Of a stretch of 64,000 nt of DNA, positions 4,527-53,890 are shown piece by piece. The stretch is from Octopus vulgaris (lineage: Eukaryota), in NCBI GenBank assembly GCA_951406725.2, contig OX597818.1, positions 20,832,001 to 20,896,000 on the forward strand, given 5' to 3'. Within the stretch, counting starts at the first letter, position 1; every line of letters starts with the position of its first letter. The notes beneath the pieces are model-generated. The model saw only the letters and a program-made list of their open reading frames with translations, ran no database searches and was not told where the DNA came from. A program made the translations under genes and the position numbers.

Positions 4527-5796
4527 TCAGGCCATTAAGAATGAAATGTGCGATTTTGAACTAAAAGTTTATTTTACCTTATCTCAACAAAAAGCAATGC
4601 AATTATCAAAGTATGCACCTAAATTATCACACAAATTTGCCATTTTATCGGTTGCTTATTTATGCCGGCAGCGAAGAATTCTGGAGAGCAAAGGTGACGA
4701 AATCATGAATGGCCGTTTTTACTTCATCTTCAGATTTGAAGTTTTTTTCCTTCTATAGAGTTGTCTAATGCCTGGAAAACGTGATAGTCAGTTGGTGCGA
4801 GGTCTGGTGGATATGGTGGATGACACAGTACTTCTAAGTTCAGTTCCTGCAACTTGAGTTGCGTTCTTTGTGCAACATATGGTTGAGCATTGTCTTGCTA
4901 GAGAATTGGCCTGTCTCTGTTGACCAATCTCGGTTGTTTAATTGCAAACTCACTCATCATCTCATCCAATTGGCTGATGTATACATCCGCTGTAATTGAC
5001 TTACTAGGTCTCATGAATCTGTAGTGGATGACACTAGCGCTGGACCACCAAACAGACACCATTAACCTTTTTAATGAATATTCTTTTTTGGATTGTGTTT
5101 TAGCACATCGTCTATATACAAAAACCGTTCAGAACGTTTGCTATTGTTGAAAAGAATCCATTTTTCATCACACGTAACAATACGACACAAAAATGGTTCG
5201 CCTTTATGCTGTGACAACAAAGAACAGCAAGACGACGTGTCATTTAATGCTCATTCAGTTCGTGTTGTACCCACTTGTCCAGCGTCTCTACCTTGCCGAT
5301 TTGTTTCAGATGGTACAATACAACTGAAATCGAAACATCAAACCTTGCTGCTAACTCACGCGTAGTTTGAGATGTATCCGCTTCCACTACAGTTTCCAGC
5401 TCATCATTATCTATCTTGGTTTCAGGTCTACTACGGGGCTGATTTTCTAGAGTAAAGTCACTAAACTAGAACTTGTCAAACCCTCGACGTGCAGTGCGCT
5501 CATTCGCCACATCACATCTTCACCAATGTTTCAATCTGTCTGGAATGCATTGGTTCCACGACGGAACTTATATTCTTAAACAACACGGATTTTTTTATCT
5601 ATCCATGGGTTCACAAAAATTGATTTACAAGAGAAAACTCACAATCTAAACAGACACTATGAATTGCATTTCGAAAAGTGATGATGTAGCTCTTCAATGT
5701 TGTAAAACAAAGAATTGTCAGGATAAAACATTAGAAGTTAACAACTGTCAAACTTAGTGCATAAGAAAATCGAACATTTCATTCTTAATGACCTCA
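4527..5796 (-). mobile_element. Near full-length decayed mariner (DD34D-type) transposon
   Basis: About 30-bp TIRs (tcaggccattaagaatgaaatgtgcgatttt / aaaatcgaacatttcattcttaatgacctca) flanked by TA. Minus-strand motifs in order: KWVQHEL (WVPHEL), RIVTCDEKW, *QDNAQP and HPPYPPDLAPTDYH; contains stops. Confidence 0.9.
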
Positions 5797-8105: not shown

Positions 8106-8308
8106 TATAATCAAAATAAGCAACAAGTATATCTTTGGTAATTTGGTACAATCGTTTCATGCTACTTCATTTTATTAAAATTACCTAAGATATACTTGTT
8201 GCTTATTTTGATTATAATCACCCCATGGATTTATATGGATAATACCATACAAAATTCTGGTGCCTCTGACTCAAGTACCATATTCATCTGAATCTAAATT
8301 TTGCTGAA

Positions 8309-8312
<4 letters not shown>
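8106..8312 (+). mobile_element. Truncated PLE-type pseudo-LTR element with inverted 5' copy, between (TA)n tracts
   Basis: About 39-bp inverted repeat 8106-8217; tail ttataatcacccc...tctggtgc...aagtac shared with 27916-28035; the inverted arm retains GAAAcgattgta (3' half of an HHR). Confidence 0.6.
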
Positions 8313-8341
<29 letters not shown>

Positions 8342-17573: not shown

Positions 17574-20157
17574 CTTTCTTTATTGGCCACACAGGGCTGA
17601 ACATAGAATGGAAAAATTACAATGTAGAGTTTTTCTTTTCAAGGGGAGCGAAAACAAAAAAAAGTAAAAAAAAAAAACATAATTAGGAACAACGATCAGA
17701 AGGAATCAAAATCGTTTAGGATATACACAAAAAAAGAGTTGAAATAATACAAAAAGTTCCCCAAAATTGGGGAGGTTTATCCCTGGAAAGAAAAACTTAC
17801 GAAAAGACCATGGTAACCTCGGGCAATAATAGCACATATTAACACATTTATTTACAAGTAAGTAACTCTCTGTTTTAAATGTTTTGGGTTTTTTCCAGTT
17901 CACAGGATCATGCTCAAGGTGGTTTCATCATTCACACGTGCCATCCATCTTTTTTTTAAACATTCGTTAGACGAAACTTGCCTCTCTACTCTCACCTTCC
18001 TTTTCAAGTATACTTGAAAAGTTGATGAGAGATTGACCAGAGAGGAAAGTGTTTGTCTCTAATCCTTTCAGACGCGTCCACCAGATACATTCTTTCGCCA
18101 TAGCCACAAGTACGATGAAAATAACTCTTCCTTCCCGTTTGAAGGAAGGAGGCGCGACAATATTGACGATAGACTCAGCTGATAAACCGACTCGTCTCAC
18201 ACGTGACAGCAGTCATTCAACATAAGCCCACAGGTCGGAAATGGTTGGACACTGAACGAGTGCGTGCAGAACGGTTTCATCGCTTTGACCGCATCTCAGG
18301 CAGGTTGGCCCCGTGTCTCTCGAGCCGTGCATGTAGAGCTTATCCCGAACGGGTAGCGCTTCTCGTTAGCACTGCCAAGTCAGGAATCTCTGGAAGTTGT
18401 CCATAGGTCCCAGCCCGAAAGTCGTCTTGAACAGGCGGGTCAGGTATTCCTCGTTGACGCCCAGGTTCGCTCCGAGATCGTCGTCGTACCTTCCCTCCAC
18501 TAATCCGCTATAGGATGCTTTGGTTGTGATGCAGTCGTTCAAGGTCAACCCGGGACAGCAGAGTTGCTCCAGATTAACGCGACACACGCGGTGCCATTCG
18601 CCCTTCCTCGGCCTCTTCTTATTTCTTTACTGCCCATAAGGGACTACACACAGAGGGGACAAACAAGGAAAGACAAACGGATTAAATCGATTTTTATGCG
18701 TAACTGGTACTTATTTAATCGGCCCCGAAAGGATGAAAGGCGAAGTCGACCTCGGTGGAATTTGAACCCAGAACGTAAAGACAGACGAAACAACGCTAAT
18801 CATTTCGCCCGGTGTGCTAATGTTTCTGCCAACTCACCGCCTCTTCTTGATCCACGACTGCATCTCGGTCATGTTGGCGTCGTTTTTATTGTCTTTTGTG
18901 TTGAAGATGGTGTGGGTAGCAAGAGTTTTTTCCAGGTTTGGGTAGTGGTTGTTGTTGTTGCTGTTCTTGATTTTTGGCGACAGTTGGACAATCATTTTTC
19001 AGATGTGTCTCGCTGTTGCACAAATAGCACCGTGACCTCCTGCCCTTCACCACTACATACAACTTGTGTCCTTATGCTAATTGAATATTTGTGGGTAATT
19101 TATCTATCGATTCTTGATCGATTTGTAAAAGTATATCGACCTTTTTACCTACCCTAAAATATTAGCTTTCTCCATTTCGAAGCAGATGGCAGATAGCAAA
19201 CATCGTGTCTCTACCTCTGGAGGCACATTCTTTATTGTTACCTTCGTCACTCTTTGTCCAAGACAGCTGGGTATCATTATCAACTTGTCTGTACGAAGAG
19301 TGAATGTAGAAAATTCTTTTACTAATTTTCACTGTGGAAATGAACTTGAACACTGGCAAATTTATGCCACCAATTGATGTATTCTTTATGTGGCCATAGA
19401 GGGCGAAGGCATTTTCAATCTTTTCCTGTGCTGCGTTTTCGGGGTTTTTTTGGGGGGGACTCAATATTTTGTAGATGATGGTTTTTTGTGTTTGTTCTAA
19501 AATGTTTTGCGGCATGTGTAAGTGTAAGCTTCGCCTTCTTTGCGGAGTAGTGTTTTTGTTTCCTTTATTTGTTGGGCAGTGAACGATACAATTGTTTTTT
19601 TGTTTTTGTTATATCGCTTCAGTGAAATTTGTTTTTTCTTTTGTGGTGGTGGTGATAGTGTTGGTTACAGAGGTGTCAGTTGTAGCAGTTGAAGGTGAAG
19701 TTGTAGTGGTAGTATTGGTATTTTCTTTTGTGGAGGTCATGGTCGATGACTTTGCGACGATATCGCTGTTGTTGTTGGTGTTGGTGGTGGTGGTGTTGGC
19801 ATCCATGTTTACATTTGCATTTGTTTGAGATTTCTCTTTTCTTTCCCTTTTTCATGAAGTTGTGGTGAAGGCAGTGTAAGGAAATCAATGTCAAACGAGT
19901 TGCCAAGGAGACTGGCGTTCTTTACAAGATTGTTTTTTTGGCTTGAGAATGCCATTGTCGAATCAAAAATGGCTAAGAAAGCCGAAAACCAATTCCCAAA
20001 ATCAGGAAACACGCCATGCAGGGCAGGTTTCCTATGCAAACAATTTACACGATCGAATCTATTAGTTGTTGCACAACTTTTACATAAAAAAATACACACT
20101 TTTGAACGCAAATAAAAGCAAACTTACTCAGAGTCGATGTGACTATCGTCCGTCCAC
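17573..20157 (-). mobile_element. Internally deleted L1/Tx1-type LINE with both ends retained, flanked by (GATA)n
   Basis: 5' UTR, T-rich ORF1 start and zinc knuckle CYLCNSETHLKNDC (~18988-19029), joined near 18875 to the ORF2 C-terminus WQC*REALPVRDKL...CLRCGQSDETVLHALVQC...KECIWWTR; 3' UTR ends ccaataagaaag; EN and RT are absent. Confidence 0.85.
18621..18842 (-). mobile_element. SINE family B monomer inserted into the Tx1 ORF2 remnant
   Basis: Flanked by duplicated ctcttctt; removing it restores the frame MQSWIKKRPRKGEWHRVCRVNLEQL. Confidence 0.85.
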
Positions 20158-20459: not shown

Positions 20460-20539
20460 ACTTGTATGTATGTATGTATGTATGTATGTATGTATGTATG
20501 TATGTATGTATGTATGTATGTATGTATGTATATTTATGA

Positions 20540-21098
20540 ATAAGGATAATATCGATATTATCAAGTGGCCAGCATGGGAATAAATACCATACAAAGGTAA
20601 TAATTTTTTACAACTATAAATAAGGGTATCTGAGAGACACCACCATGCCGAAATAGCAGTCAAATCCCTGATTCTAAAAACCACCTAAAATGTTCATATC
20701 GCACCACGAGATAAGACAGAGAGACAAAATAAACTAGCAAAAAGATATTACTGGATAATTCAAGATCCTGGATTTCTAGCTTTGCTTCAAGTAAGCTCTG
20801 CTTTCATCAGTTGAATATACCAGATGGGCACATAAATACAAATATATATATACAGAACACACGTTATACTTATATATACGAACGTCCATACATACATATA
20901 TATGTACGTATGTACAAGGCCAGATTCAAATTGCCCGCCAACCACCTCGTAAGCGCGATATGGTCAAAATAAACACCGCAGTGAATATAGTGACGAATTA
21001 TATAAATTTATAAGGATAATATCGATATTATCAAGTGGCCAGCATGGGAATAAATACCATACAAAGGTAATAAATTTTTACAACAATAAATAAGGGTA
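20540..21098 (-). mobile_element. Non-coding HHR-bearing element with about 90-bp terminal direct repeat (470-nt period)
   Basis: taaggataatatcgatattatcaagtggcc...aagggtat at 20541 and 21011; HHR between them; ends at a (CATA)n tract. Confidence 0.65.
20758..20816 (-). ncRNA. Type I hammerhead ribozyme candidate
   Basis: auucaa-CUGAUGA-a-agc..gcuu(acuug)aagc..gcu-a-GAAA-ucc a gg-AUC^-uugaau: 6-bp helix I, quasi-palindromic helix III, A.A at the base of helix II. Confidence 0.65.
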
Positions 21099-21398
21099 TT
21101 ATAGGCCTACATAGCTTTGGTTTATATTTTTACATTCTTACGGTACATTCTAAGGTAAAAGTCACACAACATTCTGTATTATACTACAACACTTGGGATA
21201 ACCACAGTGGCGATCGAAAACCAAACCTAGGTTAAGGGTTTGCTAGCTGACGTCATCCGTAGATGGGTTAATTTCAAGGAAATTAAATCCATTAGATTTC
21301 AAATGGACTATATAATACTGCTGCCGGGAGTTGACGCACAAATCGTCGTAAAGTCGATCGGCCGTAAGTCGAATAGGTCGTAAGTCGACGACGACGTG

Positions 21399-27511: not shown

Positions 27512-27596
<85 letters not shown>

Positions 27597-27626
27597 CGAG
27601 AAAAAAGCAACAGGAATGGATTAGTT

Positions 27627-27717
27627 TTTTAGTACAATTGTTTCATACAAAGACAGGCTTTATTAAAAGCTGCAAATATTGTAGCAAATACAAGTGTCCC
27701 GTACTCATCAGCTAAAA
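27627..27717 (-). ncRNA. Type I hammerhead ribozyme (mirror copy in the left palindrome arm)
   Basis: Reverse complement of 27794-27884. Confidence 0.7.
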
Positions 27718-27793
27718 CACATATGAGTTCTCCAAACATCTTAGTGGGTGAGGCTACACTCACCCACTAAGATGTTTGGAGAACTCATATGTG

Positions 27794-27884
27794 TTTTAGC
27801 TGATGAGTACGGGACACTTGTATTTGCTACAATATTTGCAGCTTTTAATAAAGCCTGTCTTTGTATGAAACAATTGTACTAAAA
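27794..27884 (+). ncRNA. Type I hammerhead ribozyme with long helix II
   Basis: uuuuag-CUGAUGA-guacgggaca...ugucuuuguau-GAAA-caauu-GUA^-cuaaaa: 6-bp helix I, palindromic ACAAUUGU helix III, predicted cleavage after 27878. Confidence 0.75.
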
Positions 27885-28031
27885 AACTAATCCATTCCTG
27901 TTGCTTTTTTCTCGTTTATAATCACCCCACATTATTGTATGGTTAATACCATATAGTTTTCTGGTGCATCTAAGTTAAGTACGGCATTCAAGTGAATTCA
28001 TTAGAACTGACTTGAATCTTAATTGCTTTTA

Positions 28032-28068
<37 letters not shown>

Positions 28069-28409
28069 AGAGAGAGAGGGGGAGAGAGAGAAGCAACTTG
28101 TTTTAAATCTCTGAGCGAGAGATATACAGTAACAGTACCAAATAGTAATGTTTATATGCCAACAGAATGTGGCAGTCCTATAAAGGACGATGTTACTGTT
28201 GTTATAGTCCCAGGAAAACATCTTTTCCAGCTGGCTATCGACACAGAGTTTGTGTCCGTATAACATTCGCAAGGGAGGTCATCGCTTCAATCTCTAGACA
28301 AACGTGATACTCACAGACCCAGGGTTTCCATGTGGTTACCTGTCCTCAGTGTGAGACAATTACAGGGTAGTGACAAAAGCTTTCTCCACTCGCAAATGCT
28401 ATATATTCT

Positions 28410-36684: not shown

Positions 36685-37288
36685 TAGCTGAAAGACAAAA
36701 AAATGTAAGCATCTATAAACAGTGTACTGGTGCCATGAGAAATATTTGCATATTATGACCGTCTGTCTTTACGTTCTGGGTTCAAATTCTCTCGAAGACG
36801 ACTTTGCCTTTCGTCCTTTTGGAGTCGATAAATTAAGTACCAGTTGTGTACTGGAGTAGATCTAATCAACTGGCCACCACCCCACAAAAATTTGAGGCCT
36901 AGAAAAGTATATTGTGATATTTACAGATTATAGAAAGTAACGTAACACCAATGACTATAATCCAACCAAAATATCTCAGTTACAACAAACGTAAACAGAA
37001 TTACTATTTAACCTAAAAATACATCGTACATATTCAAAGAACCTTCTTGGTTTAGTGGTACGGAATGTTCTTCTGGTATTCTTTTATTCTTTTACTTGTT
37101 TCAGTCATTTGACGGTGGCCATACTGAAGCACCACACTTTAGTCGAAGAAATTGACTCCTGGACTTATTCCCTGTAAGCTTGGTGCTTATTCTATCAGTC
37201 TCTACTGCCGAACAGCTAAATTATAGGGACGCAAACGCACCAACATCGGTTGTCAAGCAATGGTGGTGGTGGGACAAACACACGCGCG

Positions 37289-37436
<148 letters not shown>

Positions 37437-37599
37437 AAATAAGAGGGATGACCACTAAAGTGGACACCCAATATGCTAAACATAGACGTCAAATCGCCAT
37501 TACCACGAAGAATGTGTTCCCAAGAAAAATATCTCGGCAAAACGCCAAAATGTGAAAATGAGCAAGACAAATGAAAACATACGAAATAAAAACGATTAC

Positions 37600-37673
37600 C
37601 TACGTACCATTGGTTTCACTTGTTAATATCTACGTATATAAACACGCACACATCTGCAAGATCATCAGCGTAG
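37600..37673 (-). ncRNA. Type I hammerhead ribozyme
   Basis: cuacg-CUGAUGA-u-cuug...ugcgugu(uuau)auacgua...caag-u-GAAA-cca a ug-GUA^-cguag. Confidence 0.75.
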
Positions 37674-38129
37674 TCTGTCGCTTACAAAACACAATTTCCA
37701 GAACTAGATACAGAACGCTCAACCGAAATCGATCATGTATAAAGTTCTACAAATTATATTTGGGTGTATTTTTTCAAATGCTTTCACCTTGGCGCGCTGA
37801 GGACGGAAATTACTCTGCAGTTAATAAATTTCAGCTGCCAATTTACCGATTAGAGAACATTTTTTTATTTCAAATTAAATAATAAGTGTAGAAATTGATG
37901 TTAATCAATTAAAACCAGTGGCTTAGCATATTTAAAAATCTGAAGATTAAAAATTGCGTTACATACAGATTAAGAGGGATGACCACTAAAGTGGACACCC
38001 AATATGCTAAACATAAACGTTAAATCGCCATTACCACGAAGAATGTGTTCCCAAGAAAAAATCTCGACAAAACGCCAAAATGTAAAAATAAGCAAGACAA
38101 ATGAAAACATACGAAATAAAAACGATTAC

Positions 38130-38203
38130 CTACGTACCATTGGTTTCACTTGTTAATATCTACGTATATAAATACGCACACATCTGCAAGATCATCAGTG
38201 TAG
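38130..38203 (-). ncRNA. Type I hammerhead ribozyme, second tandem copy
   Basis: As 37600-37673 but helix I is cuaca/cguag (core-proximal A.C mismatch) and a G.U becomes A-U in distal helix II. Confidence 0.65.
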
Positions 38204-38448
38204 TCTGTCGCTTAGAAAATACAATTTCCAGAACTAGATACAGAACGCTCAACCAAAATCTTTCACTCCTTCTCTCTTTCTCTCTCACTCCCTCACTTTC
38301 TCTCTCACTCTCTCCTTCTCTTTCACACTCTCTCACTCCCTCTCTCTTACTTCCTCTCTCTCCTCCTCTCTCTCGCTTTTACTTCAAAGAAGTGCGACGC
38401 ACACAACAGGTACGTACAAAAACAAAAAGTTACCGTATTAATATTATT

Positions 38449-51823: not shown

Positions 51824-53890
51824 ACAGCGAATATATCACGTTATTGTTTCACTTTTATATACACAGTTATACATTCATGTATGTCAGTCGAAAAGTGAAA
51901 GTGTAATAGTAATACTTTAACACTCAATGGTTTTACACTTCTGTGGACCTACTATTCATGTAAGTGTTTTCTGTCTTGCTATGTTTATCACTGAGAATGT
52001 AGAGGTTCTTTTCATCTCCAACTCAAGAACATCCAACATACAGCTGATCATGTGAGAAGCAAGGTTGAAGGAAGTTAAGTCCCATAACCTTTAGTGATTG
52101 CCCTTGTGCTTTGTTGACAGACATTGCAAAGCTAAGTTTGACAGGAAACCGCAGTCTCTTGAACTGAAAGGGGAGATAATCTGAGATGAGAGGTATCCTT
52201 GGAATGAAGACATTCTCACCCATCATATTGCTATGATGAAGAGGTTTCACAGCTGCATAGGTGACTTGCACATTTGTGCCTCTGTCAGAGTGGCGTCCCA
52301 GTGTGCATAATCTTCCAGAAGACTTCTGAGATGGCAAGCCTAATGATATGCTTGACATACTGTGTTATCAACCACAAGTAAGGCTGTAAATGATGTGGGT
52401 CCCTTGACATGGTGTAATAGAAGCCTTAGATAGTAGCACTCTGAGTAGTTGGGATGGACAACATAGACTCTACCAAGTGTGTCTGATTTCTTGATTCCCG
52501 GATGATGTGTGAGTGCTCCAAGTGCATGTCTTTTCCATTTGTTTTGGTACCAGGTATAGAACTGTGGAACTTCATTGTATAGCAGTCTTGTAGTAAATTC
52601 ATCATCTTGACAGAGCTTGGAGAATGCTGTGAGTATGGCATTTTTGGGAGCTTCCGTTTGTATTTGGACTGTGTCTGTCAGTCTGCTGCCTCTGAGATCG
52701 AGGACAATGTCACGCTTGTCATGTTCTTGCCCAACCAGAAGCACAGCTATTTCATTTGCAGTTGGTGCATTAAACCTCCCTCCATGTTGACCAGATGGTT
52801 TCTTGTCTGATCTGATAACTGCCTTGTAATCCATGGAGTCAGGTGGAATTGTTTCAAGTGCAGTCTTGAAGCTTCTGATCAGGTTGTTATGTAGCATCTT
52901 TTGTAGAGACACTACAATGTTCATCTTGATGCCGGAAATGTTCTTGCATGTCTCTTGCCTTTTTTGTTGAGAATCACCCATAAAATATATTTGAAGGAAT
53001 TTTGGTGATTCATTTGACAAAGGTGGTAGAGAGCCAATCTGATGATAAATCTGACCCTGGACCTTAAAAGTTTGCATGAATCCTGGCTCAGTTAAATATT
53101 TTGTGGCTCCAAAGGATGTCATCTGTAGTGCAACATTGTACTGTCTAATTTTGTTCTGGAAGTGCTTGGAATCTTAGTCAGGTGATGACAACAGTTTCTT
53201 CAATGGTTCTGGAGGTTGGGGGATTGCAGGGAGTTTAACCTTTCCACCACGGCAGCACAGTGCAGATGTCTCTCCAGACTACTTCTTTGCTTTACAATGT
53301 ATGCACTCAGTTGTCATTGCACCAATGGAAACTCTTGTGTCATCTGCATAATGAACTGCTGGATCATAATTGAAAGCTGCTTCATAGAAGTTGCTTCTCT
53401 GAGTTGTTGCAACTGCTCTTCGTTCTGCAGTGGAGATCCTATTCCTTGTCAGTCATCCATACCTCTGTTCATCACTTTGAGATACTCGGACTTTTGTAGT
53501 GTACAGTCTGTTTGTTTCTTGGCATGCTTTCCTTTCTGCAGCTGTCTCTCTTTCCCTGGACAGAGACATTCTTTTGACTGACCTTGATATTGTAAACAAA
53601 TTGGGATAACTACAGATTTCTGCCCCCCACCCATCGACTTTGGATGATCATAACTCTCAGAAAATTGGATATTTTTAAATAAAATTTTATACGAATATGT
53701 GTTATATCATGTACATTCTTCTGAATATACAACATTTTGCGGGGTAAGCGTTTTAGGAAGGGATGAGGAATTTCTGAAAATTCATCGGAGTCCACTTCAA
53801 TTCGTCTTCACTTTCAAGGAAAATGGATATTTTTTAATGATATTCTCTACAAATATACCTCGGACTATGTAGATTCCGAGGACATAATAA
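51510..53890 (-). mobile_element. Internally deleted Helitron (5' boundary uncertain)
   Basis: 3' end cccggataacgccaagtatttctgCTAG|t at 51510; RepHel remnants inside. Confidence 0.85.
51925..53400 (-). pseudogene. Helitron Rep/helicase remnant
   Basis: IGAMTTECIHCKA..CCRGGKVKLP, MTSFGA..FKVQGQIYHQIGSL, GRFNAPT..RDIVL, YYLRLLLHHVKGPTSF and the Pif1 C-terminus FPVKLSFAMSVNKAQGQSL..FSHDQLYVGCS; Rep catalytic core and most helicase motifs are deleted; stops and frameshifts. Confidence 0.9.

Follow-up and report, generated by a model that had tools for sequence, protein, structure and literature searches.

A 530-nt non-coding tandem family of probable non-LTR retrozyme type, with Penelope-like insertion marks, in Octopus vulgaris

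Results

An insert of 821 nt on the minus strand of an Octopus vulgaris chromosome sequence (37440-38260 of the 64,000-nucleotide stretch of contig OX597818.1 analysed here, hereafter the window) consists of 1.55 units of a 530-nt non-coding unit. The insert most probably belongs to the class of animal non-LTR retrozymes, as a retrozyme-type, multi-copy element (our estimate is a probability of about 0.85). The complete mechanism, in which a predicted self-cleaved and re-ligated RNA circle would serve as the template, has slightly better than even odds, and the family is likely to be a non-autonomous parasite of Penelope-like elements (PLEs).

Structure and coding capacity of the insert

The features of the insert and of its left flank are the following:

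37440..38260, minus strand: whole insert; its 5' end, at 38260, marks a truncation and not the end of the family, other copies continuing from 38252-38260 into 37731-37735
37971..38260, minus strand: copy A, the upstream repeat, with six changes at positions where at least 93% of the family depth has the letter of copy B
37440..37730, minus strand: copy B, the downstream repeat, nearer to the family majority than copy A
37731..37872, minus strand: part of the unit that occurs once at this locus, covered in all four sequencing runs surveyed and linked to its neighbours on either side by contigs distinct from this locus
37873..37970, minus strand: tail-like segment of about 90-98 nt separating the family's two TA-flanked 3' ends, with loose ends before 37969 and before 37881/37873
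37976..38000, minus strand: GC-rich hairpin directly preceding the first of the 3' ends, found again in copy B at 37445-37469
38120..38213, minus strand: hammerhead A (type I); its core begins at 38198, the predicted cut falls between 38135 and 38134, and 38199 carries a C1.1.A2.1 mismatch
37590..37683, minus strand: hammerhead B (type I); its core begins at 37668, the predicted cut falls between 37605 and 37604, and helix I is intact
37605..38134, minus strand: predicted double-cleavage monomer, 530 nt, 33% GC
37304..37430, no strand assigned: (TA)n microsatellite abutting the 3' end of the insert; TA-run loose ends of the family lie at the equivalent site, 37969

Copies A and B are direct repeats of 290 and 291 nt, 96% alike, which differ by 10 substitutions and 1 indel. 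A sequence-only reading of the window had described a tandem of about 1.5 units, with direct repeats of about 290 bp that each carry a GUA-cleaving hammerhead on the minus strand, the two hammerheads being exactly 530 nt apart; this layout was confirmed. The part that occurs once, 37731..37872, would be the start of the unit, following the second 3' end of the family.

The longest ATG open reading frame of the unit (103 aa) is located on the plus strand, opposite to the hammerheads. It has no Pfam family and no homologue among proteins of similar length; a coding function for it was rejected on these grounds, in agreement with the earlier claim that the element has no credible coding capacity. 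No match to reverse transcriptase (RT) or GIY-YIG was found among the 105 open frames of the window and none was evident in the six frames of the insert, which does not carry the RT plus GIY-YIG ORF of an autonomous EN+ PLE.

The (TA)n run at 37304-37430 is the likely integration target. It forms the tail of a dispersed SINE-like repeat (37084-37330, many copies in the window), so that the insert lies inside the tail of another repeat. A search of the flanks for target-site duplications, which in animal non-LTR retrozymes exceed 4 bp when present, yielded a single shared 8-mer, of simple sequence, and no clear duplication around the insert. The window has no tRNA gene, and no convincing Pol III A or B box was recognized in the insert by comparison with the consensus. 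A scan for bacterial promoters stayed at chance level and is not relevant here. Exact-pattern scans of metagenome contigs and of viral contigs gave no match, and the window itself has one locus of the 530-nt family.

Hammerhead motifs and predicted folding

The CUGAUGA cores of the minus-strand hammerheads start at 38198 (A) and 37668 (B), and the GAAA-CC-AAU-GG-UA strands end at 38135 (A) and 37605 (B), leaving exactly 530 nt between the two GUA sites. The motifs have the canonical type I core, CUGANGA / GAAA / UH with helices I-III, but in both of them a U.U mismatch at 10.1-11.1 replaces the canonical G10.1-C11.1 pair. Each motif combines this U.U with a long helix II and a 3-bp helix III closed by an AAU loop; internal loops are present in helices I and II.

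A type I descriptor matched none of 20,000 dinucleotide shuffles of the unit. In the whole window it matched four times, two of these matches being hammerheads A and B, against three matches in 40 shuffled windows. Rfam gave no hammerhead match at A or B, neither at the gathering score nor at E<=10, and the long helix II is a likely reason. A plus-strand CUGAGGA..GAAA arrangement at 37798 was rejected as a hammerhead: it leaves no room for helix II and is not matched by the descriptor.

At 38199, next to the cut, copy A has a C1.1.A2.1 mismatch; copy B and 95-99% of the family depth have a C-G pair there. A mismatch at the pair next to the cut impairs hammerhead cleavage. Hammerhead A is thus probably impaired, and one of the two predicted cuts is probably weak, for single ribozymes and for a dimer alike. 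When each motif was folded alone, the minimum free energy (MFE) structure of B was the hammerhead; the hammerhead fold of A lay 0.6 kcal/mol above its MFE. The release of a monomer from this copy by double cleavage, as proposed from the letters, is therefore doubtful, and the copy is probably a poor monomer source because its upstream hammerhead carries a private mismatch beside the cut.

In the ensemble of the whole insert, helix I formed with a predicted frequency of about 0 for A and 0.09 for B; in the circle the values were 0.02-0.03. Self-pairing of the helix III strand in a dimer is predicted at -8.2 kcal/mol. Folded as a circle, the 530-nt monomer was 65% paired with z = -3.7 against 60 shuffles, which is a prediction only; four control stretches gave z = -1.8 to +0.6. 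The tail-like segment 37873-37970 is predicted to pair back with 38000-38012.

The unit in sequencing runs

Part of the searched stretch was matched by 20 of the 24 runs listed, none of which contained half of its words and none of which was listed as RNA; matches with a share below 0.2 in runs that were not aligned are left out of account. Contigs of four runs (X1, X3, X12 and X16) were aligned to one unit, taken as 37731-38270 (540 nt). The DNA run X1, from organism A, gave 2,524 contigs on the unit and the DNA run X3, from organism B, gave 3,030; most of them, 1,624 and 1,961 respectively, were less than 95% alike to it, and all 30 bins along the unit were covered. Judged from these alignments, the 530-nt unit is a large, diverged multi-copy family. 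This disposes of a single-copy unit, an outcome that the sequence-only reading had named as one that would count against it. The other such outcome, copies always attached to a PLE ORF, was not observed either: a share of 0.01 of the contigs in both X1 and X3 continues into unlike sequence, and no attached PLE ORF was seen among them, the contigs being short enough for rare ORF-linked copies to escape.

Among 15 of the 54 joints recorded within the unit, seven led from 38252-38260 back to 37731-37735, two led back by 455 and 488, one skipped 98 and five changed strand; three of the five strand changes were present in both X1 and X3. The junction at 37970 was bridged in all four runs by pieces with 11-22 other letters, and the one at 37870 was bridged in X3 and X12. 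Since contigs of the family bridge all junctions of the 530-nt ring, the period belongs to the family as a whole, and the insert is truncated at 38260.

The runs X16 and X12, which were guessed to be RNA and are possibly DNA, gave 212 and 20 contigs on the unit; the Spearman correlation of their depth profiles with that of X3 was 0.95 and 0.32, respectively, and no accumulation of ends was listed. In all four runs the summed contig depth, a weak measure, peaked at 37875-37946, several-fold over the hammerhead region; this segment may be common to other families or to the helper PLE, or may come from very short copies. Summed depth, which is neither a copy number nor a basis for ranking the parts of the unit, was lowest at 37731-37874, where the locus is more diverged; as a hint only, the low value would fit 5' truncation.

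3' ends of the family and Penelope-type marks

Among 24 of the 502 loose ends recorded, flanks made of TA runs preceded 37969 in 24 contigs of X1, and preceded 37881 in 16 contigs of X1 and 23 of X3. One X12 contig departed at 37873 into a TA-rich flank. TA-flanked 3' ends of the family fall at no fewer than two sites, which lie 165 and about 255-262 nt downstream of the cut and some 90 nt from each other. Variable 5' ends and one fixed 3' end had been expected: the variable 5' truncation and the position of the 3' end at TA held, and the single 3' end did not.

An anole PLE is described as starting reverse transcription at two internal sites downstream of its hammerhead, the stretch between them being an optional tail (PMC11167929). 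The two-ended pattern found here bears a resemblance to this Penelope 'tail', and is best kept at that, given a segment of about 90-98 nt compared with the 30-40 nt in descriptions of the PLE tail. PLE insertions are reported to favour (TA)n, to be truncated at the 5' end and to contain partial tandems and inverted 5' pieces (PMC8557442); the octopus insert shows the partial tandem, the 5' truncation and the microsatellite or AT-rich target. A helper PLE in the octopus is plausible, because 31 recently active Penelope-like families are reported for O. vulgaris (PMC13282606).

Variation in the hammerheads and between the copies

Variation in the hammerheads was examined over 32 pairs set by hand and 40 of the 98 variants, taken unphased. 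Within this set, variants touched five of the 32 pairs and all five pair in their variant form, and the 13 core letters had no variant. The main case is a helix I swap of C-G to U-A, whose two changes had shares of 71% and 73% in X1, and 85% and 65% in X3. The others are a G.U to A-U change in distal helix I, a G.G to U-A change in helix II, an A-U to G.U change and a G at 2.1. CpG decay is an unlikely cause of the helix I swap: at the CpG of 38200/38199 one change has a 71-96% share and the other 5% or less. Compensatory change thus keeps the helices paired in a family that is non-coding, which points to selection for folding or cleavage. A difference between the copies that preserves distal helix II (G.U to A-U), on which the earlier reading drew, is real (37643/38173), with both letters common in the family (41-83% share).

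At 11 of the 20 positions compared inside the repeat, A and B have in common a letter that is not the majority one, at three of them a letter with 2% or less of the family depth. At six of the 20, only copy A differs from a letter that makes up at least 93% of the family depth; this excess of private changes in copy A was not significant (6 of 10, p = 0.75). Because they share rare non-majority letters, the two copies derive from one source variant, either one molecule or a near-identical tandem, and their decay is later.

Other elements in the window

Elements of this kind are frequent in this DNA. About 17 kb from the insert, at 20529-21099 on the minus strand, lies an unrelated partial tandem, a 1.2-mer of a 470-nt unit with terminal direct repeats of about 100 bp (94%). 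The only hammerhead of this tandem is of type I, with its core at 20810, A.A at 10.1-11.1 and a predicted AUC cut after 20764. The 3' end of the tandem is at (TGTA)n, a 477-nt stretch folded as a circle gave z = -5.9, and the layout is like that of the 530-nt insert.

At 27591-27920 there is a near-perfect palindrome of 330 nt (98%), with a hammerhead-like core in each arm (+27800, -27711) and the left end at (TA)n; it resembles the inverted 5' pieces that PLE insertions carry head to head. Its right flank is in part about 70% alike to 8169-8338. On the minus strand at about 28310-28355 (core at 28349) there is one more motif like a type I hammerhead, with a perfect 6-bp helix I and a GUC triplet; its isolated MFE structure is not the hammerhead fold.

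The minus strand also carries an open frame of 148 aa at 19165-19608 that has no Pfam match and that, by eye, we take to resemble a piece of a non-LTR ORF1/gag. Broken Helitron Rep/helicase frames occupy 52026-53173 (minus strand), their best match being an Octopus bimaculoides protein (83% over 48% of the query), and a transposase fragment lies at 4901-5128 (minus strand; Pfam Transposase_1, PF01359, E 4e-16).

Discussion

Comparison with known retrozymes and Penelope-like elements

Animal non-LTR retrozymes have been described with units of 220-245 nt in corals, 350-390 nt in mussels and 330/350 nt in the axolotl (Cervera and de la Pena 2020, PMC7229834). The octopus family resembles the elements of that report in being a non-coding tandem with one type I hammerhead per unit, GC below 50%, many copies and a self-paired predicted circle. 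The U.U at the base of helix II in the octopus hammerheads also has a counterpart there, in axolotl HHR_Amex2. This U.U variant with a 2-bp helix III was 22% cleaved in an hour as a monomer and cleaved better as a dimer, and its repeat gives circles (PMC7229834).

The differences concern length, structure and host. At 530 nt the octopus unit exceeds the 150-450 nt given in PMC7229834 and falls inside the 51-972 bp of a 2026 preprint (Li, Clavereau and Pollet, 10.64898/2026.07.22.740005). Compared with the retrozymes of PMC7229834, it is found as a 1.55-mer at (TA)n, with an extended helix II and a hammerhead that is predicted to be sequestered in the circle; its host is a cephalopod. No cephalopod retrozyme was found in the literature searched, which had few subscription papers; 235 Rfam hammerhead hits are reported for the giant squid (PMC6962438).

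The preprint presents non-LTR retrozymes as proposed derivatives of PLE pseudo-LTRs that use PLE enzymes, with monomer, dimer and multimer copies. There this link is drawn from co-occurrence and sequence trees, mostly of vertebrates and with no mollusc, whereas the octopus link is drawn from the TA target, the two 3' ends, the 5' truncation and the inversions. The octopus family shares with EN+ PLEs, as described for Poseidon PAc (PMC11167929) and for Neptune and Naiad (PMC8557442), the partial tandem, a hammerhead upstream of two 3' ends, an AT-rich or (TA)n target and inverted junctions. It differs from them in having no RT/GIY-YIG ORF in its unit, a tail-like segment longer than theirs, and a hammerhead nearer to the canonical than to the minimal form. 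By these testable features the 530-nt family would be a further animal non-LTR retrozyme, of a kind that corals, mussels, amphibians and many more animals are already known to have.

Proposed mechanism and alternative explanations

In the proposed mechanism, read-through transcripts of intact tandem copies would cleave at GUA, either as monomers or, through the near-palindromic helix III, as dimers, and the 530-nt monomer would be closed by a host ligase. A helper PLE would nick (TA)n and prime reverse transcription at an internal position of the RNA (165 or about 255-262 nt downstream of the cut). Its enzyme would cross the cleavage site twice and stop after 1.55 turns, and the genomic copy would have decayed after insertion. 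Reverse transcription from 37440 would have crossed the cut sites 37605 and 38135, and the template would therefore be a circle closed by re-ligation or a tandem transcript left uncleaved. DNA alone cannot separate these two; the junction of a circle has the same sequence as that between tandem genomic units. We favour the circle. The sequence-only reading had taken an insert longer than one unit as what reverse transcription around a circle would leave; its assignment to the retrozyme-type class is supported, but such an insert does not require a circle, an uncleaved tandem giving the same DNA.

The reading closest to this one keeps the same PLE-dependent, non-autonomous family and replaces the template by an uncleaved read-through transcript of a tandem source: the hammerhead would be inherited from a PLE pseudo-LTR, few or no circles would be made, and the 1.55-mer would be a 5'-truncated partial tandem. 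We regard it as rather unlikely. It predicts the DNA that is observed, including the shared rare letters if the source tandem was homogeneous. The hammerhead fold is predicted to be a minor species in long contexts, and helix I in the circle as well, which speaks against the circle; in most circles of animal retrozymes the ribozyme is predicted to stay free (PMC7229834). In the anole PLE studied in vitro, unprocessed RNA was the dominant substrate, hammerhead mutants did not lower insertion and no reads are reported to end at the cut (PMC11167929). Only one of nine Xenopus dimers cleaved in vitro, the other eight showing no cleavage (preprint 10.64898/2026.07.22.740005), and non-autonomous Chlamys elements that have no hammerhead are also arranged head-to-tail (PMC8557442). 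The re-ligated circle is nevertheless favoured because compensatory change conserves the helices in a non-coding unit, because that unit folds well, and because relatives of this kind in coral, mussel and axolotl accumulate abundantly as circles, which RtcB closes in vitro (PMC7229834). In addition, copies made from linear tandems could presumably only shorten, so that copies longer than one unit must be regenerated somehow.

The insert could also consist of two pseudo-LTR pieces from an ORF-bearing autonomous PLE that template switching has stacked, in which case 530 nt would not be a unit of its own. PLE insertions do form partial tandems with pseudo-LTR hammerheads, tails and inversions, and the palindrome at 27591-27920 is such a head-to-head hammerhead pair within the window. 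This is improbable, given that diverged copies from two organisms share these 530-nt junctions and that 1% of the contigs run into unlike sequence; against it stand also the lack of RT or GIY-YIG in the frames of the window and of the insert, and a 3-bp helix III with a two-part helix I, unlike the minimal PLE motifs. Very improbable is a local event that simply duplicated 290 bp within or next to single-copy or decayed sequence. The window has this sole locus of the family, and the rare letters shared by A and B would suit such an origin, but the contigs number thousands and are diverged, and the period and both junctions recur in other copies.

Significance of the octopus family

To a specialist, a retrozyme-type element in one more animal is unsurprising in itself, and its value is that of a test case. 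With the Penelope-type ends it becomes possible to test what enzyme mobilizes animal retrozymes, and whether a circle is its template. It is possible, with something short of even odds, that octopus genomes hold several unrelated retrozyme families, such as those of 530 nt and 470 nt described here, which make RNA circles that are copied by Penelope-like enzymes primed at (TA)n or (TGTA)n from two internal starts. If this is true, the ends of thousands of copies would be a direct genomic record of PLE machinery reverse-transcribing ribozyme-made circles, a step that the retrozyme papers have proposed without demonstration.
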